Assembly (NCBI GenBank): GCA_029821875.1
Contig: JALGXW010000001.1
Coordinates: forward strand, 161,987 to 225,986
Reading direction: 5' to 3'
Length of the DNA stretch: 64,000 nt
DNA from: Candidatus Hebobacterum abditum
GTDB taxonomy: Bacteria > Armatimonadota > Hebobacteria > Hebobacterales > Hebobacteraceae
Position numbers and translations under genes: made by a program. Within the stretch, counting starts at the first letter, position 1. Every line of letters begins with the position of its first letter. Under the pieces are notes generated by a model, which was not told the origin of the DNA, did not search any database, and saw only the letters and a list, made by a program, of their open reading frames with translations. Below, one piece after another: positions 3,386 through 37,557 of this stretch.

Positions 3386-4026
3386 CAGGTTGCTCCAGGG
3401 GGAGTTCCGACGCCGGGCTTCTCGTCGTTCTGTCCGGGCCTTCCGGGGTGGGGAAGGGGACGGTTGTGGCCCATGCGATGTCCCTCAAGAGCGAGGGAGC
3501 ACACAGGCTTCGCCGCTCCGTCTCTGTTACCACGCGGCCGCCGCGCCCCGATGAGAAGGACGGGGTGGATTACTTCTTCTGTGGCCTCGAGGCGTTCGAG
3601 GGGAAGGTCCAGCAGGGCCGACTCCTGGAGTGGGCCACCTATCTCGATAACCGGTACGGGACGCCAGCCGACTGGGTCGATCAGCAGCTCGCGTCGGGAA
3701 GTAATGTCGTGCTGGAGATAGAAGTCCAGGGCGCGATGCAGGTGAGGGAGCGGCGCCCGGAGTCCGTACTCATATACATGCTTCCTCCATCCTGGCGAGC
3801 CCTCCGTCGCAGGCTTCGGACCCGGCGGAGCGAAAGCGAGGAGGTCCAGCGGAAGCGGCTGGCCGTGGCTCGTGAAGAGGTGAAATGGGTGTCGGCGTAC
3901 TCGTATCTGCTTGTGAACGATCGCGTCCCAAGGGCGGCCCGGAGGTTGCTGGCCATCCTCGAGGCGGAGCGCGCCCGCGTCGAGCGGGCCGACTTAGGCC
4001 CGTGGTTCGGGGGCGTCGATGACTAA
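3382..4026 (+). CDS. gmk: guanylate kinase
   Basis: P-loop LLVVLSGPSGVGKGT and TTRPPRPDEKDGVDYFF motifs. Start assigned to the in-frame TTG at 3382, about 12 aa before the P-loop; the listed ORF start at 3076 is a spurious upstream extension. Confidence 0.85.
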   Translation: MTGCSRGSSDAGLLVVLSGPSGVGKGTVVAHAMSLKSEGAHRLRRSVSVTTRPPRPDEKDGVDYFFCGLEAFEGKVQQGRLLEWATYLDNRYGTPADWVDQQLASGSNVVLEIEVQGAMQVRERRPESVLIYMLPPSWRALRRRLRTRRSESEEVQRKRLAVAREEVKWVSAYSYLLVNDRVPRAARRLLAILEAERARVERADLGPWFGGVDD

Positions 4027-5296: not shown

Positions 5297-6445
5297 ATGA
5301 AAGACGAGCACTATCTGTTCACATCCGAATCTGTTACCGAGGGTCATCCGGACAAGATGGCCGACCAGATCTCGGACGCGGTCCTCGACGCTCTGCTCGA
5401 GCAAGATGAGAACAGTCGCGTCGCATGCGAAACCCTCATCACGACTGGACTCGTCATCGTCGCAGGGGAGGTGACCACGACCGGGTACGTGGACATTCCG
5501 GCTGTGGTTCGCGAGACGATACAGGACATCGGCTACACGCGTGCCAAGTTCGGCTTCGACTCGGAGGTCTCGGGGGTCCTGACCGGCATACAGGAGCAGT
5601 CTCCCGACATCGCGATGGGCGTGGACATCGGGGGGGCCGGCGACCAGGGGATGATGTTCGGTTACGCCGTGAACGAGACGCCGGAGCTCATGCCCATGCC
5701 CATCATGCTCGCCCACAAGATGGCGCGGCGGCTCTCCGAGGTCCGGCGGCTCGGGGAGGTGGATTACCTGCGACCGGACGGCAAGACGCAGGTCACTGTT
5801 GCCTACAACAACGGGAAGCCGGTCCACCTTAACAAAATTGTCGTGTCGGCGCACCATCGACCGGACGTGGATCACGAGCGGATCCGCAGCGACATGATCG
5901 ATCTCGTGGTTCAGAAGATATGTCCGAAGGACATGGTGGACGACGAGACTGACATCCTCGTCAACCCGACGGGCAGCTTCGAGCGAGGCGGGCCGCTCGC
6001 CGACACCGGTCTGACCGGGCGCAAGATCATCGTGGACACGTATGGGGGAGTGGGTCGGCATGGAGGCGGATGCTTCTCGGGCAAAGATGCTACGAAGGTG
6101 GACCGCTCGGCCTCATACATGATGCGCTACGTCGCGAAGAACATCGTGGCCGCGGGCCTCGCCGAGCGCGTGGAAACTCAAGTGGCCTACGCCATAGGGC
6201 ACGCGGAGCCCATGGGCTTCTGGGTCGACACCTTTGGCACCGGGAAGATCGCCGATGAGGCGCTGGCCGACATCTGCACGAAGCTGTTCAAGCTCACCCC
6301 TCGGGACATAATCGACAAGCTGCAGCTGCGGACACCGCAGTTCCGTCAGGTGGCCGCGTACGGTCACTTCGGGCGAACAGACCTCCCGGTCCTCTGGGAG
6401 CAAACGGACATGGCGGACAAGCTGCGGCAGGAGGCGGGCGTCTAG
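5297..6445 (+). CDS. metK: S-adenosylmethionine synthetase
   Basis: 382 aa; [26 protein letters not shown] and DTYGG signatures. GAGGGA RBS upstream. Confidence 0.95.
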
Positions 6446-6464
6446 GCGGGGGCCCGCCGACGGG

Positions 6465-8897
6465 ATGCCGATGTCTCTCTACGCGGAGGTGCTGCCAGAC
6501 CCGGGACGCGCGCTCGGCCAGCTTTTCACCTATCGCGTGCCCGAACACCTGCAGGACGCCGTGAGGGTAGGCTCCCAGGTACTCGTTCCCTTTGGCCCCC
6601 GCACCGTCGTTGGCTTGGTGGGCGCGTTGCGGAGCAGGAGTGGCCGCCAAGACCTGAAAGATGTCGAATCGGTCTTGGCCGACGTGCCCGCGCTCTCCGC
6701 GGATTCCCTGGCCCTCGCCGAGTGGATGGCCCGCTACTACATCTGCGAACTCGGCGAGGCCCTGCGGCCCTTCCTGCCGGAGGGAATGAGCTATCGCATC
6801 AGCCGCCGGTTCCGCCTGACCGGGCAGCCCATCCCCCCCGAGGTGCTTCGGCGCCCCGATGCCGGCCCGATCGCCGAGCACCTCCAGTCGGCCGAGAAGG
6901 AGGTAAGCATCGGGAGCCTCCGGCGGCTCCTTCCCGCGAGCCGGCTCCAGAGGGGCCTCAGGCTGCTCAAGTCGCGCGGCCTGGTCGGCGAGCGTGCTCT
7001 TCTCCTGCCACCTCGTGCCCGCGAGAGGCAAGTTCGGCTGCTCGAGGTGGCGGTGGCCGCCGGGGAGGTCGATCGGTACTGCGAGGCAAGGGCGAATCGC
7101 GCGCCCGCGCGCGTGGCCGCCCTTCGCGTAGCCCTCGTTGCAGGGGCCTCGCCGGCCGGCGAACTCGCTCGGCGGGCAGGTGTCTCCGTCGCCGCCATTC
7201 GGGGACTGGTCGACGATGGCATGTTGCGAGCCCGCTGGATCCCGGTCCGCCGAAGGCCGTGGGCGCAGGCCGCCGATGCGCTCGGCGAGCCCCCGGCTCT
7301 GACGCCCGAGCAGTCCGCGGCCGTCGCGGCCGTGACCGCCGCCGTCGATTCCGGGGAACACGCGTCCTTCCTGCTGTACGGAGTGACCGCCAGCGGGAAG
7401 ACGGAGGTCTTCCTTCGAGCTATCGAGCGCGTTTTGGCTGCTGGCAAGCAGGCCATCGTCCTGCTGCCCGAGATATCGCTCACCGCTCAGGCGATCGGTG
7501 TCTATCGGGGGCGGTTCGGCGAGCGGGTGGCGTTGGTGCATAGCGCGCTCTCGCTCGGCGAACGCTGGGACGAGTGGCAACGGATTCGCAGCGGCGATGC
7601 CGGAGTCGTGTTGGGTGCGCGTTCGGCCATCTTCGCGCCGGTGCCCAAGCTCGGCCTGGTCGTCGTGGACGAAGAGCACGAGACCTCCTACAAGCAGGAA
7701 CAGGCTCCGCGCTACCACGCGCGTGAGGTTGCGCTGAAGCGGGGGGAGCTCAGCCGCTGCCCGGTGCTCCTGGCCAGTGCGACGCCTGCCATCGAGACGT
7801 TCTACGACGCTGAGAAGGGCCGACACAAGCTGCTGCGGCTTCCGCGGCGGGTAGAGGATCGGCCGCTGCCGACCGCACGCGTGATCGACATGCGCGGGAG
7901 CGAGGGAAGGCAGACCATCCTCTCGAGCGCGCTTCGACAGGCCGTCGCCGCACGGCTGCGAGAGGGCGAGCAAGTCATCCTCTTCCTGAATCGCCGCGGG
8001 TTCGCGACCTTCCTGCTCTGCCCGACCTGCGGGCGGGCGGTTAGATGCAAGGAGTGTGGCGTTGCTCTGAAGTACCACCGAGACGCCCGCCAGGTTCGGT
8101 GCCATCACTGCAACTACGCAGAGGTCGCACCGGATATCTGCGCCAACTGCGGCAGTCATCAGATCCGGTTCTCCGGGTTCGGCACAGAGCGTGTCGAGAG
8201 GGAGCTCCGTCGAATACTCCCTGCCGCCCGGCCGGGGCGCATGGATCGCGACACCACGTCTGGCAAGGGGGCTCATGTGCGCATCGTGGGCCAGTTCCGC
8301 AGCGCCGAGACGAACGTGCTCATCGGAACGCAGATGGTTGCCAAGGGCTTCGACTTCCCCGGAGTGACGCTCGTCGGTGTCATATCGGCCGACACCTCTC
8401 TCAACTTGCCCGACTTCCGCGCGGCCGAACGGACCTTCCAGCTGCTCACCCAGGTCTCCGGCCGGGCCGGCCGCGGGGAGAAGGAGGGAGAGGTCATCGT
8501 CCAGACGTACCGGCCCGACGATGACAGCATTCGCGCCGCCGCCGCCCATGACTACGAGTCCTTCTACCGGAACGAGATCGAGAGCAGGCGGGAGTTGAAC
8601 TACCCGCCGGTATCCCAGCTCGTCAACCTCGTTGTCAGTTCGGAGGAGGAGGAGGCTGCATCCCACCGCGCTGGCGTCATTGCGGACGCTCTGCGCCGGG
8701 CCGGGGGGGAGCGAGTGCAGGTGCTGGGGCCTGCGCCTGCTCCTCTGCCGAGGCTGCGTCGGCGCTATCGGTGGCACGTCATGCTGAAGGGACCCCAGGG
8801 CGAAGTGCAGGGGGTGGTCCGAGAGGCGCTGGTTGGTCTGGGGACTGCGGAGGCAGGCATGCTGGCCGTGGATGTGGACCCAGTCTCACTCATGTGA
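6465..8897 (+). CDS. priA: primosomal protein N' (replication-restart helicase)
   Basis: 810 aa; Walker A GVTASGKT, DEEHETSYKQ, Cys4 zinc-binding region (CPTCGR...CKECG...CHHCNY...CANCG) and C-terminal helicase motifs. Confidence 0.9.
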   Translation: MPMSLYAEVLPDPGRALGQLFTYRVPEHLQDAVRVGSQVLVPFGPRTVVGLVGALRSRSGRQDLKDVESVLADVPALSADSLALAEWMARYYICELGEALRPFLPEGMSYRISRRFRLTGQPIPPEVLRRPDAGPIAEHLQSAEKEVSIGSLRRLLPASRLQRGLRLLKSRGLVGERALLLPPRARERQVRLLEVAVAAGEVDRYCEARANRAPARVAALRVALVAGASPAGELARRAGVSVAAIRGLVDDGMLRARWIPVRRRPWAQAADALGEPPALTPEQSAAVAAVTAAVDSGEHASFLLYGVTASGKTEVFLRAIERVLAAGKQAIVLLPEISLTAQAIGVYRGRFGERVALVHSALSLGERWDEWQRIRSGDAGVVLGARSAIFAPVPKLGLVVVDEEHETSYKQEQAPRYHAREVALKRGELSRCPVLLASATPAIETFYDAEKGRHKLLRLPRRVEDRPLPTARVIDMRGSEGRQTILSSALRQAVAARLREGEQVILFLNRRGFATFLLCPTCGRAVRCKECGVALKYHRDARQVRCHHCNYAEVAPDICANCGSHQIRFSGFGTERVERELRRILPAARPGRMDRDTTSGKGAHVRIVGQFRSAETNVLIGTQMVAKGFDFPGVTLVGVISADTSLNLPDFRAAERTFQLLTQVSGRAGRGEKEGEVIVQTYRPDDDSIRAAAAHDYESFYRNEIESRRELNYPPVSQLVNLVVSSEEEEAASHRAGVIADALRRAGGERVQVLGPAPAPLPRLRRRYRWHVMLKGPQGEVQGVVREALVGLGTAEAGMLAVDVDPVSLM

Positions 8898-8932
8898 TAG
8901 ACTTGCGCCTGACGGGCTTCCAGGCAGGAACC

Positions 8933-9499
8933 GTGAGCGATCCATCCAGCCCGGAACTGAAGATCCTGCAGTATGGCCATCCGGCCCTCCGGCAGCGGGC
9001 GAAGAAGATCGGCCGTGTGACTTCGGAGGTGAGAGAACTCGTTGGCACAATGACAGAAGTCATGCGATCGGCGCGCGGCCTTGGCCTGGCGGCGAACCAG
9101 ATTGGAATGGCGCGCCGAGTGGCCGTTGTGGAGATCGCGGACAAGCTGACGGCGCTCATCAATCCGGAGATCGTTAGCGCAACGGGTGCGGAGGCGACGG
9201 ATGAGGGCTGCCTCAGCCTGCCCCGGCTCTACGGGAGTGTAGAGAGGCCCACGGAGGTCGTCGTTCGCGCGCGGGACCTCACCGGGAGGCAAGTGAAGAT
9301 CGAGGCCGAGGGCATGCTTGCGCGCGCTCTCTGCCACGAGATCGACCATCTAAACGGCAAGCTGTTCGTGGATTCGGCCGAGCGCGACACGCTTTACTGG
9401 CTGATAGGCCAGACGGAGGAAGGCGAGCCGCTGACACAGGCGACGACGCTGGAAGACGCGCTCCGGGTCTTTGCCGCCGCGCGGGGCTCAGATGGGTAG
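8933..9499 (+). CDS. def: peptide deformylase
   Basis: GCLSLP, EGCLS and HEIDHLNG motifs. Start chosen at the in-frame GTG at 8933 (MSDPSSPELKILQYGHPALRQRA), the usual distance before the ILxY motif; GTG 8894 is an alternative. Confidence 0.85.
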   Translation: MSDPSSPELKILQYGHPALRQRAKKIGRVTSEVRELVGTMTEVMRSARGLGLAANQIGMARRVAVVEIADKLTALINPEIVSATGAEATDEGCLSLPRLYGSVERPTEVVVRARDLTGRQVKIEAEGMLARALCHEIDHLNGKLFVDSAERDTLYWLIGQTEEGEPLTQATTLEDALRVFAAARGSDG

Positions 9500-10454
9500 C
9501 ACGTCTGGGACGACACTTCAGATCGCCTTTATGGGCACGGCCGAGTTCGCCGTGCCCACACTGCGTGAGTTGGCGGAGGGAGGAGAGGAGATCGCGGCTG
9601 TATTCACGCGCCCCGACCGGCCGGCGGGCCGGGGGCGCCGACTGAGGCCGCCCCCCGTGAAGCGCGCCGCGGAGGAGATCGGGCTGCCGGTTCATCAACC
9701 GGAGCGTGTGGGCGTCGGCGAGGGACTCGGGCTGCTCCGGTCGATGGGGCCGGACCTGATCGTCGTCGTCGCCTTCGGTGAGATTCTCAGCGAAGAGGCC
9801 CTGTCTGTTCCTGGTCTCGGCGGGATCAATACCCACGCCTCGCTATTGCCGCACTATCGAGGCGCGGCGCCAATCCAGCGGGCCCTGATGGCGGGGGAGC
9901 GACTGAGCGGCGTCACCGTGCAGTGGATGTCGGCCGAGATGGATGCAGGCGATATCTTGCTTCAGCGTGAACTCGCCATCGGCGAGGAGGAGGATTTCGG
10001 GAGCCTGCACGACCGCCTCGCCGCCGTTGGCGCCGAGGCGACCGCGGAGAGCGTGGCTCTGATTCGCCGAGGCAAGGCGCCACGCGACAGGCAGGACCAC
10101 TCGCAGGCAAGCTACGCGCCGCCGATTCGGCGGGAGGAACTCGTGATAGATTGGGGCAGATCCGCCCAGGAGGTGGCGCGGCTCGTCTGCGCCTTCTCTC
10201 CTCGTCCGGGAGCGCGAACGACGCACGAGGGCGATCTGCTGAAAGTGCTCGCCGCGCGGCCTGGCAAAAACGCAGCCGCGGCAGGAGGAATCCCTGGACA
10301 GATCATGGAATTGACCAGCGATGGCTTCTGGGTGGCTACTGGTGACGGGCGTCTGCTGGTGACCCGTGTGCAGTCGGCTGGGCGAAGAGCTATGTCCGCC
10401 GCGGAGTACCTGAAGGGGCATCGGCTTCCAGTAGGCGGGCGATTAGGCAGTTGA
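9492..10454 (+). CDS. fmt: methionyl-tRNA formyltransferase
   Basis: N-terminus MGSTSGTTLQIAFMGTAEFAVPTL and HASLLPHYRGAAPIQ motif. The ATG overlaps the def stop (ATGGGTAG). Confidence 0.9.
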   Translation: MGSTSGTTLQIAFMGTAEFAVPTLRELAEGGEEIAAVFTRPDRPAGRGRRLRPPPVKRAAEEIGLPVHQPERVGVGEGLGLLRSMGPDLIVVVAFGEILSEEALSVPGLGGINTHASLLPHYRGAAPIQRALMAGERLSGVTVQWMSAEMDAGDILLQRELAIGEEEDFGSLHDRLAAVGAEATAESVALIRRGKAPRDRQDHSQASYAPPIRREELVIDWGRSAQEVARLVCAFSPRPGARTTHEGDLLKVLAARPGKNAAAAGGIPGQIMELTSDGFWVATGDGRLLVTRVQSAGRRAMSAAEYLKGHRLPVGGRLGS

Positions 10455-32248: not shown

Positions 32249-33211
32249 CTACTCATCGCCTTCTGACAGCCAAGGGGGAGACGTGTCCTCGGGTGTCAGG
32301 CTCTCCTCGGGCTCGAACTTCCTCGGTTTCAGCCGACGCACGAGCGAGGTAACGTCGTCGGCCTTGCACGCATCCTCGATACCATCCGCGTCGGCGTGGC
32401 GTGATAGGATGACGAGCGCTTCACCGTGCCAGAGCACCTCGAACAAGAGCAGGCAGTCATTGAGCTGAGCATCGAGGCGGACGACGGGCGAGACGAGCTT
32501 CGCCCAGTTCTTCACTTGGCCGGAACGCCCGCGCGGAGCGATGAACCCGGTCGCACCGGCCCCCGCGCCCTGGGCGAACGCGTCCTCAAGCCGGTCATAC
32601 GGGCAACACAGGTATCCCCATGGCAGAAGCTGTGGGCCATCGATTCTGTAGTCTCTTGCCTGGAACACCGCTATCTTTCGGCATTCGAACTCCCTTTGGA
32701 AGTGCTCCATGGCAGCGGCGGTGCCCTCCGGCGTAAATACGTTGACCTCGTCTGGGTGTTGCTCAGCTACCCACGAGGGTATGAAGCAGACTTCGTAGTC
32801 ATCAGGGTCGTAGAGCTGTTTGAGAACGCGAGCCCACATGCGGGCGAGGGCCCGCTGCTCCAGCGGCGTTGGCTCCCAGTCATCCGTCTCCGGCCCGGCT
32901 ATAGCCGCCATCCCAATGCCCGTGTAGGGCGGGAGATCTAGTGGGGGCCCACATTCGATGGGAGCCTCGGGTAGCCCGAAGTGCAGACCGCGGTTCAGGA
33001 CGCACTCAGCGCCGCTGTCCTCCAGCCACTCACAACCCCAGTCCAACTGAACAGATGATACGCCTTGCTCGGTGTCGATACGCTTGGACACAGGTCGGAA
33101 GACCGTGTCCGCACCGTACCACACGCCCGCGATATCTCGCCGCCAGTCCGGCGCGAACCCGGGGATCTTCCGTGGGTCCAAGGTGAAGTGTTTCCCGCTG
33201 TCTTCCCCCAT
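32249..33211 (-). CDS. hypothetical protein (320 aa, acidic C-terminus)
   Basis: Long ORF with coding-like composition; no recognisable motif. Confidence 0.5.
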   Translation of the reverse strand: MGEDSGKHFTLDPRKIPGFAPDWRRDIAGVWYGADTVFRPVSKRIDTEQGVSSVQLDWGCEWLEDSGAECVLNRGLHFGLPEAPIECGPPLDLPPYTGIGMAAIAGPETDDWEPTPLEQRALARMWARVLKQLYDPDDYEVCFIPSWVAEQHPDEVNVFTPEGTAAAMEHFQREFECRKIAVFQARDYRIDGPQLLPWGYLCCPYDRLEDAFAQGAGAGATGFIAPRGRSGQVKNWAKLVSPVVRLDAQLNDCLLLFEVLWHGEALVILSRHADADGIEDACKADDVTSLVRRLKPRKFEPEESLTPEDTSPPWLSEGDE

Positions 33212-33361
33212 GGAGCCCCCTCTATAGGCCAGACATGAACTCCCATACAGAGTCGGCCGCGCCGGGTAGGCCTTCGTGGCCGACTCGGGGGGACAATTCG
33301 CCGCCGCGCTGCCGGAGGCCTGCCGGTTCCGCTGGAGCAGCTCAGTCGAGTCGAAATGGTG

Positions 33362-33601
33362 TCACTTCTTGCGTCCGGCCACGAGCTTGTTGTAGAGCTT
33401 GTCGCCGAGGCACTCTCTCGCCATCTCGCAGTGGTCGATGCAGCCCTGGAGACGCTCCCGCGAAACGACGGTGCCGCAGTCGGCGCACTTGACCTCGATC
33501 TCGTCGGTCCAGATCTCCACCTCGGAATGGCAGACCGGGCAGGGGATGAACTCCAGCGTCGGCTGCTTGAACTGCTTCGCCCCTGGGCACTCGCTCCACA
33601 T
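33362..33601 (-). CDS. small Cys-rich protein (zinc-ribbon CPVC...CADCG plus CIDHC...C), 79 aa
   Basis: Start placed at MWSECPGAKQ because it is preceded by a GGAGAG RBS at 7-nt spacing; the longer ORF version would run through the regulatory palindrome at 33681-33694. Confidence 0.5.
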   Translation of the reverse strand: MWSECPGAKQFKQPTLEFIPCPVCHSEVEIWTDEIEVKCADCGTVVSRERLQGCIDHCEMARECLGDKLYNKLVAGRKK

Positions 33602-33680
33602 TGCTCTGCTCTCCACATAGATCACGGGGTGAGATGTCCGTGTCCACATGGATGATAGCCGGGAGGGGGCGTGGAACTCC

Positions 33681-33694
33681 TTGACCTGAGTCAA
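33681..33694. promoter_or_regulatory. Palindromic FNR/Dnr-type box TTGACCTGAGTCAA (TTGAC-N4-GTCAA), site 1
   Basis: Perfect inverted repeat in the divergent region between the small Cys-rich gene (-) and the crp/fnr-family gene (+), 21 nt upstream of the latter's ATG. Confidence 0.5.
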
Positions 33695-33714
33695 CTGCGG
33701 GAGGAGGAGCTTAC

Positions 33715-34398
33715 ATGGGAGCAGTCACGGCATCTGACCTGGCAGGATGGCAGCTGTTCTCCTATCTGCCGGCGGGCGATACGGCTCGCCTGGCTCGCGT
33801 CGCCACCCAGCACCGGTTTGGCAAGGGACAGACGATCTTCTCCGAAGGCGATCAGGCAGATGCGCTCTGGGTCCTCCTCAAGGGGCAAGTGAAGATCTTC
33901 AAGCTGTCGCCCGACGGGAGAGAGCAGGTCATGCGCATCGTGCGTGGGGGAGAGTCCTTTGGCGAGGCCGCCGCGCTCTCGCAGGGCGACTACCCCGCCC
34001 ACTGTGAGGCGATTGCGCGCTCGGTCGCAGTACGATTTCCGGCCAACGACTTCCTGGCCCTACTCAAAGGCAGCCCCCAACTCGCGGTCAATATGATCGT
34101 GGCGCTCAGCCAGCTTCTGCGGGGCTTCGCCTCATTGGTGGATGCCCTCGCGCTCCGCGAGGTGTCGGCGCGGCTCGCCAAGTATCTCCTCGACGCCTCT
34201 GTTCGCGCGAAGAGCGACGCTGTCGTCCTCGAGGTCCGCAAGAGCCTCCTGGCCGCTCGTCTTGGCACGGTGAGCGAGACGCTCTCCCGTACGCTGCGCC
34301 GTCTCCGGGAGCGCCGCATCGTGAGAGTTGAGGGCCAGCGCATCGACATCCTCGATCGCCCTGCCCTCCAGCAGATCGCGGCTGGGATGAGGATCTGA
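33715..34398 (+). CDS. Crp/Fnr-family transcriptional regulator
   Basis: 227 aa; cNMP-binding-like beta-roll (GQTIFSEGDQADALWVLLKGQVKIF...GESFGE) and a C-terminal HTH with FNR-type recognition helix VSETLSRTLRRL (E--SR). Only one Cys, so not an Fe-S FNR sensor. GGGAGGAGGAG RBS. Confidence 0.85.
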   Translation: MGAVTASDLAGWQLFSYLPAGDTARLARVATQHRFGKGQTIFSEGDQADALWVLLKGQVKIFKLSPDGREQVMRIVRGGESFGEAAALSQGDYPAHCEAIARSVAVRFPANDFLALLKGSPQLAVNMIVALSQLLRGFASLVDALALREVSARLAKYLLDASVRAKSDAVVLEVRKSLLAARLGTVSETLSRTLRRLRERRIVRVEGQRIDILDRPALQQIAAGMRI

Positions 34399-34404
34399 CA
34401 GCTC

Positions 34405-34418
34405 TTGACCTGGGTCAA
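34405..34418. promoter_or_regulatory. Palindromic FNR/Dnr-type box TTGACCTGGGTCAA (TTGAC-N4-GTCAA), site 2
   Basis: Same half-sites as site 1, 7 nt after the crp/fnr stop and centred 70 nt upstream of the ferredoxin-like gene's ATG. A TATCCT -10-like hexamer at 34441-34446 would put the box at about -41.5, the class II activation position. Confidence 0.55.
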
Positions 34419-34480
34419 GGCGCTTCGAGCGGGCCCTGCGGTATCCTGCTGATGACAGTGCAATCTGCAGGAGGAAAGAG

Positions 34481-35251
34481 ATGGCTAGGGTCCGCAACAT
34501 AATCCACATCGACGAGGAGAAGTGCAACGGCTGTGGGCAGTGTGCCACGGCCTGCGCCGAGGGCGCGATCGAGTTGGTTGACGGGAAGGCGCGCCTCGTC
34601 AGCGAGGTCTATTGCGACGGTCTGGGCGCATGCATCGGCGAGTGCCCGACGGGGGCCCTCTGGATCGAGCAAAGGGAGGCCCCGGACTACGACGTCCAGG
34701 CCACGCGGGAGCACCTCCAGAGCATCGGGCGCGATCCAAACGCCGCCCATGACCCCGGCGCGGAGAACGAACACGCGCCGGCCGAGGCCGGTCAGAACCT
34801 GGCCTGTGGCTGCCCCGGCACCGCCGCACGGGCATTCACACCGGCCGGGCAGGAGGCTCCCACGGGCCAGCCGTCCGCGCTGGGACAATGGCCGGTGCAG
34901 CTCACACTGGTGCCGCCGGATGCGCCCTACTTCCAGGGCGCCGACCTGCTGGTGACGGCGGACTGCGTCCCCTACGCCTACGCCGACTACCACGCCGATC
35001 TGCTCGCCGGAAAGGCGGTCGTGGTGGGCTGCCCGAAGCTCGACGATGCTGACTTCTACGCCAACAAGCTGGCAGCGATTCTCACGGCCTCGGACATCCG
35101 CTCGATCACGGTGGCGATTATGGAGGTTCCCTGCTGCGGCGGACTTCTGAGGATCGTCGAGCGGGCGCTCGAGCAGTCCGGCAAAGATATCCCCGTCGAG
35201 GTCGCTACGATCGGTGTGCGCGGGGAGAAGAGGGTGCCGGCCGCGGCATGA
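34481..35251 (+). CDS. ferredoxin-domain protein: N-terminal 2x[4Fe-4S] ferredoxin fused to a C-terminal Cys-rich domain
   Basis: CNGCGQCATAC...C and CDGLGACIGECP cluster motifs; C-terminal CGCPG, CVPYAYADYH, GCPKLDD and VPCCGG motifs. AGGAGGAAAGAG RBS. Confidence 0.7.
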   Translation: MARVRNIIHIDEEKCNGCGQCATACAEGAIELVDGKARLVSEVYCDGLGACIGECPTGALWIEQREAPDYDVQATREHLQSIGRDPNAAHDPGAENEHAPAEAGQNLACGCPGTAARAFTPAGQEAPTGQPSALGQWPVQLTLVPPDAPYFQGADLLVTADCVPYAYADYHADLLAGKAVVVGCPKLDDADFYANKLAAILTASDIRSITVAIMEVPCCGGLLRIVERALEQSGKDIPVEVATIGVRGEKRVPAAA

Positions 35252-35319
35252 CATCTCCTTGAGTTGTCGGCCTGGCACAGCAATCGTCGCGCACGTCGTA
35301 CGAGCTCGGCCGCAGGGCG

Positions 35320-37557
35320 ATGCTGCGGGAGCGGCAAACTATCGGCACCATGGGTCTGAGACGAGCTGACCTGAAGATAACGGGCATGCACTGCGCGGCC
35401 TGCGCGTCTCGCGTCGAGAGTGCGCTGCGCGAGACCGAGGGGGTCTCCGAGGCGAATGTGAACTTCGCCACGGAGAGTGCCGGCCTCCTCTATGACGACG
35501 AGCGTCTCGGCCTCGAGGAAATTGCGGCCGCGGTCGAGGCGGCGGGCTATGGCGTCGTCATGCCGGGCGCCGAGGATGACGAGCGCGCAGCGAGAGAGCG
35601 AGAGCTTCGCACTCTCCAACGGAAGCTGTGGTTCTCGCTCGCCGCCGTTGCCGTGATCATGCTGAGCATTCACGTCGTTTCTCACGTCGTGGCGGTGCCC
35701 GCCGAGGCGCTGCTCGTCGTCGCGACACCGGTTCAGTTCTGGGCCGGGGCCCAGTTCTACCGCGGAGCCTGGACGGCTCTGCGCGGCCGCTTCGCAGACA
35801 TGAACACACTCATCGCCGTGGGGACCTCGGCCGCCTACTTCTACAGCCTGGTGGTCACCCTCAGGCCGGACGTCATAGTCAGTGTAGGTGCGGAGATCCA
35901 CCTCTATTACGACACCTCGGCAATGATCATCACGCTGATCCTGCTGGGCCGGACGCTGGAGGCCAGGGCGAGAGGACGGGCCTCCGAGGCCATCCGGCGG
36001 CTCATGGGGCTCCAGGCGAAGACGGCCTGCGTGCTGCGAGATGGTGAAGAAGTGGAGGTCGCCATCGAAGATGTCGTCATCAGGGATGTCGTCGTCCTGA
36101 GACCCGGCGAGCGCGTGCCTGTGGACGGCGAGGTACTGGAAGGGGAGTCGGCTCTGGACGAGAGCATGGTCACGGGAGAGAGCATGCCCGTCGAGAAGGG
36201 TCCGGGAGACCTGGTGGTGGGCGGCACCGTGAACCTGAGCGGCGCCTTCCGCTTCCGCGCCTCACGGGTTGGAGCGGACACGGTCCTCGCGCAGATCATT
36301 CGGCTCGTCCAGGAGGCCCAGGCCACGAAGGCTCCCATCCAAAGGCTCGCGGATAGGGTCGCAGGCATCTTTGTCCCCATCGTCATCGCCATCGCCGTCA
36401 TCACGTTCGTCATCTGGCTCTTCGTCGGGCCCAATCCGACCTACGCGGTGGTTGCCGCAGTTGCCGTTCTCATCATCGCCTGTCCGTGTGCCCTCGGCCT
36501 CGCTACGCCGACCTCCCTTCTCGTCGGTACCGGGAGAGGGGCGGAGCTCGGCATACTCATACGCAGCGCGGAGGCGCTCGAGGTGGCCGGCGCTGCGGAC
36601 ACCGTGCTCTTCGACAAGACGGGCACTCTGACTCGCGGCACGCCTGAGGTGACCGACATAGTGGCCGCGCCTGGACACACTCAAGAGTCGGTCCTCCGCC
36701 TCGCGGCCTCAGCTGAGCGCTACTCCGAGCATCCCCTGGGCCAGGCCATCGTGAGGGCTGCACGAAACAGGAAGGTCGATATCGCTGAGGCCGCCGACTT
36801 CAAGGCTATGTCCGGCCTGGGAGTGAGCGCCGGCATCGAAGGGACCACCGTGCTGGTGGGCTCCGGCCGGCTGCTGGCCGAGCAAGGCGTGGCCGTCGAA
36901 ACAATGCAGGGACAAGCCGATGTGCTGGCCGGGGAGGGGAAGACGGCCGCGCTTGTGTCCGTGGATGGCAAGACCATCGGCGTGATCGGCCTGGCAGACG
37001 TTGCGAAGGAGGAGGCCAGTGATGCAGTCCGTTTGCTGAAGGAGATGGGCCTGCGGGTCGCGATGGTCACCGGCGACAATGCGCGGACGGCCGAGGCCAT
37101 CGCCCGCGAGGTGGGGGTCGACGACGTGCGCGCCGAGGTCTTGCCAGATCAGAAGGCCGAGGCCGTGAAGGCCCTTCAGGCGGAGGGGCGGCGGGTGGCG
37201 ATGGTGGGAGATGGCATCAACGATGCGCCGGCCCTCGCCCAGGCCGACGTCGGCATCGCCATCGGGCGCGGCACCGACATCGCGATGGAGTCGGCGGACA
37301 TCACCCTGGTGCGAGATGACCTCCGCCTCGTGCCCGAAGCGATCCGGCTGAGCGGGGCGACGCTCCGCAACATCAAGCAGAACCTCTTCTTCGCCTTCTT
37401 CTACAACAGCTTGGGGATTCCGATTGCGGCGGGTGTGCTCTACCCCGTCATTCATACACTTCTCAACCCCGCCATCGCGGCGGGTGCCATGGCCTTCTCG
37501 TCGGTCTCCGTGGTGACGAACGCGCTGAGGCTGCGGACGTATGAGCCTGTCGGCTAG
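35320..37557 (+). CDS. copA: copper-translocating P1B-type ATPase
   Basis: 745 aa; HMA domain [25 protein letters not shown] (CPC motif), DKTGTLT phosphorylation site, GDGINDAP hinge. Confidence 0.85.

Follow-up and report, generated by a model that had tools for sequence, protein, structure and literature searches.

Background

Which protein reads a perfect TTGAC-N4-GTCAA palindrome that lies between the gene of a Crp/Fnr-family regulator and a divergently transcribed small Cys-rich gene, and which of the two genes does it serve? The question is raised by a locus in Candidatus Hebobacterum abditum, which belongs to an uncultivated lineage (Ca. Hebobacteria) of the Armatimonadota, and from which a stretch of 64 kb (the window) was analysed. 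A sequence-only reading of this DNA had described the palindrome as an FNR/DNR-like operator, had named the adjacent regulator with its E--SR recognition helix as the most likely binder, and had proposed that the site serves autoregulation, control of the divergent Cys-rich gene, or both.

A motif of this kind has been described before. Rodionov and co-workers predicted HcpR, in 2004 and 2005, as a Crp/Fnr regulator that lacks the cysteines of FNR and branches with DNR (PMC545781, PMC1274295), and the text of the later paper groups the HcpR1 and DNR branches together and gives the FNR-like type of HcpR a Ser or Pro at the position of R180 in CRP (PMC1274295). The consensus in the same accounts, wyTTGACnnnnGTCAArw (ATTTGACCnnGGTCAAAT), was placed upstream of hcp and frdX in Desulfuromonas, Geobacter, Desulfotalea and two cyanobacteria (PMC545781, PMC1274295), and the motifs reported for HcpR elsewhere are TGTGA-N6-TCACA in Desulfovibrio and GTAAC-N4-GTTAC in the HcpR2 branch (PMC1274295, PMC5701242). 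In C. difficile, activation of hcp and frdX by HcpR upon exposure to NO exceeds 200-fold, and the role of FrdX was still called unclear in 2026 (PMC12915319); the HcpR of P. gingivalis works by a heme-dependent mechanism (PMC12750200). In the limited literature that was searched, I found no direct binding study of an HcpR of the TTGAC-N4-GTCAA type.

Data and methods

Relatives of the regulator are encoded in the 160 loci (1.18 Mb) of the comparative set, of which 80 come from genomes and 80 from metagenomes; single loci are cited by L numbers. The nearest public relative of the regulator, at 95% identity, comes from a Candidatus Hebobacteria MAG of the phylum Armatimonadota (L001). The expected number of boxes was computed from base composition for the 160 loci and from shuffles for the window, and a gene was counted as associated with a box if a box with at most one mismatch is found 20-250 bp upstream of its start. 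The regulator was also aligned pairwise with the sequences of CRP and E. coli FNR.

Results

The palindrome of the earlier reading (TTGACCTGAGTCAA, box 1; TTGACTCAGGTCAAgg when read on the strand of the Cys gene) is indeed present in the 113 bp that separate the divergent regulator and small Cys-rich genes (Table 1), and it is one of exactly two matches to TTGAC-N4-GTCAA in the whole window, where 0.01 would be expected. Relaxing the pattern to TTGAY-N4-RTCAA returns the same two sites only, against an expectation of 0.06. Sites with one or two mismatches were rejected as candidates, as their number in the window (15, with 12 expected) is at chance level, and those that were placed fall in open reading frames. 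The second perfect palindrome (TTGACCTGGGTCAA, box 2), which is absent from the earlier reading, belongs to the same regulatory unit as box 1; it is found 7 nt past the stop codon of the regulator gene, with its centre 69.5 nt before the ATG of the frdX-like gene.

Table 1. Features of the regulatory unit in the 64-kb window (positions of the window; -10 elements and targets are predicted)
Feature	Position	Strand	Basis or remark
Box 1, HcpR-type palindrome	33681..33694	.	pattern match
Box 2, HcpR-type palindrome	34405..34418	.	upstream of frdX-like gene
-10-like hexamer TATCAT, predicted Cys-gene promoter	33652..33657	-	23 nt from box 1; centre of box at about -42.5
-10-like hexamer TATCCT, predicted frdX promoter	34442..34447	+	23 nt from box 2; centre of box at about -42.5
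HcpR-like Crp/Fnr-family regulator, 227 aa	33715..34398	+	Pfam domains; recognition helix V-S-E-T-L-S-R
Small 8-Cys zinc-ribbon protein gene, 79 aa, predicted box 1 target	33362..33601	-	homologs; invariant Cys
frdX-like gene, 256 aa, predicted box 2 target	34481..35251	+	Fer4 families
Cu-type P1B ATPase gene (copA-like)	35320..37557	+	family matches; 68 nt after frdX

Both boxes recur among relatives. Box 1 is kept in eight related Armatimonadota loci that have the divergent Cys gene, where it starts 34-35 nt before the ATG of the regulator, and box 2 is conserved ahead of the frdX homologs in all close relatives. Within this Armatimonadota group, the half-sites are 93-100% conserved, in comparison to 69-73% for the spacer of four nucleotides (69% for that of box 1) and 52-85% for the flanks. 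Over the 160 loci, 100 perfect boxes are observed where 0.81 would be expected. A box is associated with 64 of the 75 frdX homologs (52 of them with a perfect one, and with a median distance of 78.5 nt between box centre and gene start), with 36 of the 64 genes of the YgbA_NO family (PF11756), and with 18 of the 19 homologs of the Cys gene. The box and the regulator gene co-localise, usually as immediate neighbours, across Armatimonadota, Thermodesulfobacteriota/Desulfuromonadales, Planctomycetota, Actinomycetota and Sumerlaeota.

The regulator has the architecture that defines the Crp/Fnr superfamily, an N-terminal cNMP-binding-like beta-barrel (cNMP_binding, PF00027, 88 bits) followed by a C-terminal Crp-type HTH (HTH_Crp_2, PF13545, 53 bits). 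No NCBIfam model reaches its cut-off with this protein, and FtrB, FixK, NtcA and other equivalogs stay far below theirs. Its closest solved structure is DNR (PDB 3dkw, E 5e-25, about 92 bits). The gene has a strong Shine-Dalgarno sequence (GGAGGAGGAG) before its ATG, and the N-terminus of the protein is conserved from Met1. The recognition helix contains VSETLSRTLRRL, and the E--SR residues that the earlier reading had pointed out are confirmed: E188, S191 and R192 align with the E..SR residues of DNR and of E. coli FNR (E209/S212/R213) and are invariant in 30 homologs. Aligned to CRP, S187, E188 and R192 correspond to R180, E181 and R185, which places a Ser at the CRP-R180 position.

Two better known members of the superfamily were tried and rejected as identities of this protein. 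The [4Fe-4S] cluster of E. coli FNR, the O2 sensor, is ligated by C20, C23, C29 and C122. The regulator holds a single Cys (C97), its alignment with FNR begins at FNR residue 54, and C122 faces a residue other than Cys; having neither the N-terminal Cys cluster nor an equivalent of C122, it should therefore not sense O2 by means of a labile [4Fe-4S] cluster. CRP, the cAMP receptor, is characterised by R82 and S83, which contact cAMP, and by the R180-E181-R185 helix, which reads TGTGA. In the regulator, R82/S83 are replaced by Y93/P94 and R180 by S187, and the third position of the boxes is a T instead of a G. Across the 30 homologs, the effector domain has no invariant His, Met or Cys, so that a heme ligand, and hence NO sensing, is not readable from the sequence.

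The promoters downstream of the boxes share a common geometry. Read from the box towards the target gene, the sequence has a TAnnnT hexamer at an offset of 22-23 nt in 49 of 55 unique frdX promoters and in 27 of 34 YgbA promoters; for the Cys gene, 14 of 17 promoters have it at 21-23 nt. Both predicted promoters in the window keep a spacing of 23 nt, whereas 22 nt is dominant elsewhere; L002 and L004 have the identical 23 nt, with AATCAT or TATCTT before the Cys gene and TAACCT before frdX. Taking TAnnnT as the -10 element puts the centre of the box at -41.5 or -42.5. In class II activation by FNR or CRP, the activator site is centred near -41.5 and overlaps a poor -35 element, and under the same assumption on TAnnnT this spacing is observed at both window promoters as well as at the 49 frdX promoters mentioned above. 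Scans of 33300-34600 for sigma-70 and terminator consensus sequences found nothing, the promoter of the regulator included, a null result on the sigma-70 side that fits activator-dependent promoters.

Box-preceded hcp genes are located near homologous regulators in L033, L048, L078 and L121: box-frdX-hcp operons adjoin the regulator homologs in L033, L078 (Pirellulales) and L121, and in L048 a perfect box directly precedes hcp. In an Aquicultor-type group (L026, L113, L119, L120, L123), the box is followed by a short ferredoxin gene and hcp. These Hcp assignments are based on the NCBIfam hydroxylamine reductase/hybrid-cluster equivalogs, with scores of 754-840 bits against cut-offs of 361-367. 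In the 64-kb window itself, tblastn with a verified Hcp detected no hcp or prismane gene, so that the name-giving target of HcpR is missing locally. A different enzyme gene was observed in an Actinomycetota MAG (L036, 4718-6749), where a perfect box (TTGACTTAAGTCAA) precedes a CooS-type gene (TIGR01702, 800 bits) beside a regulator homolog. This arrangement points to some CooS-like enzymes as members of HcpR-type regulons.

The frdX-like gene codes for an N-terminal 2x[4Fe-4S] ferredoxin domain and a Cys-containing C-terminal domain, and its product, aligned over its full length, has 42% identity to the FrdX of the box-frdX-hcp operon in L078. With box 2 in front of it, the window contains the box-preceded frdX, linked to the regulator gene, by which an HcpR system is recognised. 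Whether copA is part of the unit through read-through from the predicted box-2 promoter is uncertain; sigma-70 and terminator consensus scans of 35100-35500 detected no promoter- or terminator-like site in the gap between the two genes. As a conserved regulon member, copA was rejected, since among the related loci frdX and copA are adjacent only in the window and in L004, and the adjacency is interrupted in L001 with its 95% identical regulator. There, at 6181-9606 on the minus strand, a gene of 1141 aa is found between frdX and copA, with N-terminal motifs that resemble SLH repeats when judged by eye; its absence from the window points to a recent insertion or deletion. Antisense to frdX, an open reading frame of 287 aa (34415-35278, minus strand), which a crude gene caller preferred, was read as a shadow ORF of high-GC DNA.

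The small Cys gene needs a corrected start. The mechanically called open reading frame (33362-33694, minus strand) starts at a TTG inside the palindrome, but as the homologs begin with MWSECPGA, the real start is taken to be the ATG at 33601, which gives a protein of 79 aa. Eight cysteines are invariant (C5, C21, C24, C39, C42, C54, C58, C64), of which C21xxC24 and C39xxC42 form a zinc ribbon and C5, C54, C58 and C64 are four further ones. No family of Pfam or NCBIfam reaches its cut-off with this protein. A profile search at E<=1e-3 retrieved 765 representative clusters, of which 188 pass E<=1e-10. Nearly all matches listed carry the domain at their N-terminus, and in the representative-library matches P0165, P0152 and P0265 it is joined to hemerythrin (62 bits), HD or DUF2249 domains. 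An AF2 model (pLDDT 75) has the zinc ribbon followed by helices, and compared with the PDB it retrieves generic zinc-ribbon matches only, none with E below 0.3. Downstream of the Cys gene, an open reading frame of 320 aa (32249-33211, minus strand) has no match in Pfam or NCBIfam; no homolog of it was found among the 160 related loci, and it is therefore not counted in the regulatory unit.

Discussion

I consider it highly probable that both palindromes are operators of the HcpR-like regulator encoded between them, which is predicted to activate the Cys gene and frdX from class II positions, with NO as the most likely effector. By analogy with the characterised HcpR and DNR proteins, the regulator would be activated by its effector, most likely NO or nitrosative stress, and the activated dimer would then bind each TTGAC-N4-GTCAA box through its E..SR helix. 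Both box centres are found about 42.5 bp before the predicted start of transcription, where the -35 region is weak and the -10 element reads TATCAT or TATCCT. From box 1, the dimer would switch on (rather than repress) the divergent 8-Cys zinc-ribbon gene, and from box 2 the frdX-like gene, possibly reading through into copA. The choice of NO as the signal is inferred from the family analogy and from the genes that share the box, frdX, YgbA_NO and hcp.

Taken together, the motif, the recognition helix and the predicted targets fit an HcpR regulon of the HcpR1 branch as described in the text of Rodionov et al. The window boxes match their wyTTGACnnnnGTCAArw (ATTTGACCnnGGTCAAAT), and the 14-nt core of box 2 is that of the site ccTTGACCTgGGTCAAtT listed for hcp3/hcp2 of D. 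psychrophila (PMC545781). In agreement with the proteins in that account, the regulator carries a Ser where CRP has R180 and none of the FNR cysteines, and DNR is its closest solved structure; it likewise has a box-preceded frdX beside its gene, and the distance from box centre to gene start, about 55-100 nt here, resembles the published -80 to -130. The differences are the uncultivated Armatimonadota host, the lack of hcp within 64 kb, and the 8-Cys zinc-ribbon target, which is not among the members given in the main text and in-text tables of Rodionov et al. The HcpRs that have been studied, those of P. gingivalis and C. difficile and the HcpR1 and HcpR2 of Desulfovibrio, are also Crp/Fnr activators of hcp and/or frdX under nitrosative stress (PMC12915319, PMC12750200, PMC5701242). 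However, they come from other branches, with GTAAC-N4-GTTAC or TGTGA-N6-TCACA as motif, and their heme or Fe-S ligands (e.g. Met68 of P. gingivalis) are not conserved in the window regulator.

DNR of P. aeruginosa, a heme-based NO sensor (3dkw), shares with the window regulator the P/S-E-T-x-S-R helix and an FNR-like box, and is its best structure match. However, this match amounts to only about 92 bits, and the predicted targets are frdX and the small Cys gene; in the partly annotated window, both boxes precede genes other than nir, nor and nos, and none of these denitrification genes was noticed near them. E. coli FNR resembles the system in its class II promoters, with half-sites TTGAT/TTGAC-N4-ATCAA/GTCAA, a helix of the E209/S212/R213 type and a site near -41.5, and differs in its cluster cysteines, including C122, which the window regulator lacks.

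As far as can be judged from sequence comparison, box 1 is most likely a class II activator site of the divergent 8-Cys gene. It could, alternatively, be kept mainly for autoregulation, by repression or activation of the regulator's own promoter. Box 1 runs from 34 nt to 20 nt before the ATG of the regulator (in the relatives it ends at 20-21 nt), and the remaining gap holds only the Shine-Dalgarno sequence, so that the core promoter or 5' UTR of the regulator must overlap the box, and some members of the family do autoregulate, e.g. HcpR1 of Desulfovibrio (PMC5701242). Still, I regard this as unlikely, as only 16 of 151 regulator homologs have a box in the 250 bp upstream of them, almost all of these in a divergent arrangement with a target gene, and the other 135 have none. 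A comparison among relatives points in the same direction. In L089, L090 and L091, whose regulator is 72% identical, the Cys gene has been lost and replaced by a block of REP-like repeats, and the upstream box has decayed to CTCACCC[G/A]GATCAA (three mismatches), while the box of frdX is perfect and the 87 nt that precede the regulator ATG have kept 87% identity with those of L085; these three loci are nearly identical and essentially represent one loss event. Both the Cys gene and an upstream box are absent from L093-L095, which have kept the regulator. Moreover, the conserved promoter-proximal GG flank and the -10-like hexamer are on the Cys-gene side of box 1, and class II activation of the regulator is geometrically impossible, because transcription would have to start inside an open reading frame that is conserved from Met1. 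The rarity of upstream boxes at regulators and their decay without the Cys gene thus indicate that box 1 serves the divergent gene. The second half of the earlier proposal, control of the Cys gene, holds; its first half does not hold as a main function. Autoregulation is at most a side effect and not what conserves box 1: a dimer bound 20 nt before the ATG may dampen transcription of the regulator by steric auto-repression.

The boxes might, instead, be read by another global regulator of the FNR/DNR type that is encoded elsewhere, e.g. an O2-sensing FNR. TTGAY-N4-RTCAA is common to FNR, DNR, FixK and others, as is generally known and as the text of the 2005 survey also has it (PMC1274295), but the adjacency of box and regulator gene in several phyla makes this improbable, and tblastn found no second Crp/Fnr homolog in the window. 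The E..SR helix and this co-localisation support the adjacent regulator as the most likely binder, as had been supposed. A somewhat better chance, although still a minor one, falls to the same mechanism with an effector other than NO, which might be CO or a further diatomic gas, a metal or a redox signal. Genes of the CooS type (the CO-dehydrogenase family) have homologs of the Cys gene and of frdX as neighbours, in one case under an Rrf2 regulator, so that the signal could be broader than NO; the box before the CooS-type gene in L036, copA behind frdX in the window and an effector domain with no conserved heme-ligand residue in 30 homologs can be read in the same way. However, the most common box-preceded neighbours, frdX, YgbA_NO and hcp, are known genes of NO and nitrosative-stress regulons (PMC1274295, in its text, and PMC12915319), cooS itself is induced by NO in D. 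desulfuricans (PMC5701242, Table 4), and the linkage to copA is not conserved. Finally, that the palindromes are chance inverted repeats, RNA hairpins or terminators has next to no probability and is effectively refuted. Box 2 does occupy a possible terminator position so close behind the stop codon, but the stem has only 5 bp and no T-tract follows, the folding z-scores are -0.5, +0.2 and -0.85, the terminator scan found no terminator-like site, and rarity in the window and half-sites that are conserved while the spacer varies are against all three.

The TTGAC-N4-GTCAA site of HcpR has been known since 2004-2005, and the pair of copies in the Armatimonadota is a well-founded but not an unusual result. 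Through it, the nitrosative-stress regulon of the HcpR type is extended to an uncultivated class within this phylum, with the operator, the promoter geometry and the frdX target unchanged across phyla, and the window supplies promoter/operator pairs that are ready for testing. The loss of the Cys gene is a natural experiment which indicates that a box upstream of a regulator can persist for the divergent gene and not for autoregulation, and this calls for caution in regulon annotation. The REP-like block at the site of the loss (L089, about 3640-3900, also in L090 and L091) is composed of five tandem GC-rich palindromic units of ~44 nt, CCGTTCTGTAGGGCGGGC...GCCCGCCGGCC.

The most novel by-product of this analysis is the 8-Cys protein family, which is flagged here, with FrdX, as a conserved partner of Hcp- and CooS-type enzymes. 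Members of the family are encoded behind HcpR boxes in several phyla, and they have frdX and Hcp- or CooS-type genes as neighbours. Two closer homologs of the Cys protein immediately precede CooS-type prismane genes (TIGR01702, 764-784 bits), and L164 (2538-6896) has the order Rrf2-family regulator, FrdX-like protein (54% identical to that of the window), 8-Cys protein, NIR_SIR/Fer4 protein and CooS-type prismane enzyme, in a cluster without an HcpR box. As the Cys protein and FrdX thus accompany prismane-family enzymes under at least two kinds of regulators, a functional link is supported. I tentatively propose, with the chances a little short of even, that the 8-Cys protein represents an unrecognised, widespread family and is a dedicated component of an NO-stress/prismane-enzyme module, in which it could act as a metal or Fe-S redox partner, as a maturation factor or as an NO-sensitive switch for prismane enzymes. 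If so, box 1 would couple the 8-Cys protein to the signal in the Armatimonadota lineage. Tandem repeats of ~95 nt were also observed (L161, 1-340; L162, 300-430), in front of the gene for a Cys-protein homolog that is followed by a CooS-type gene.
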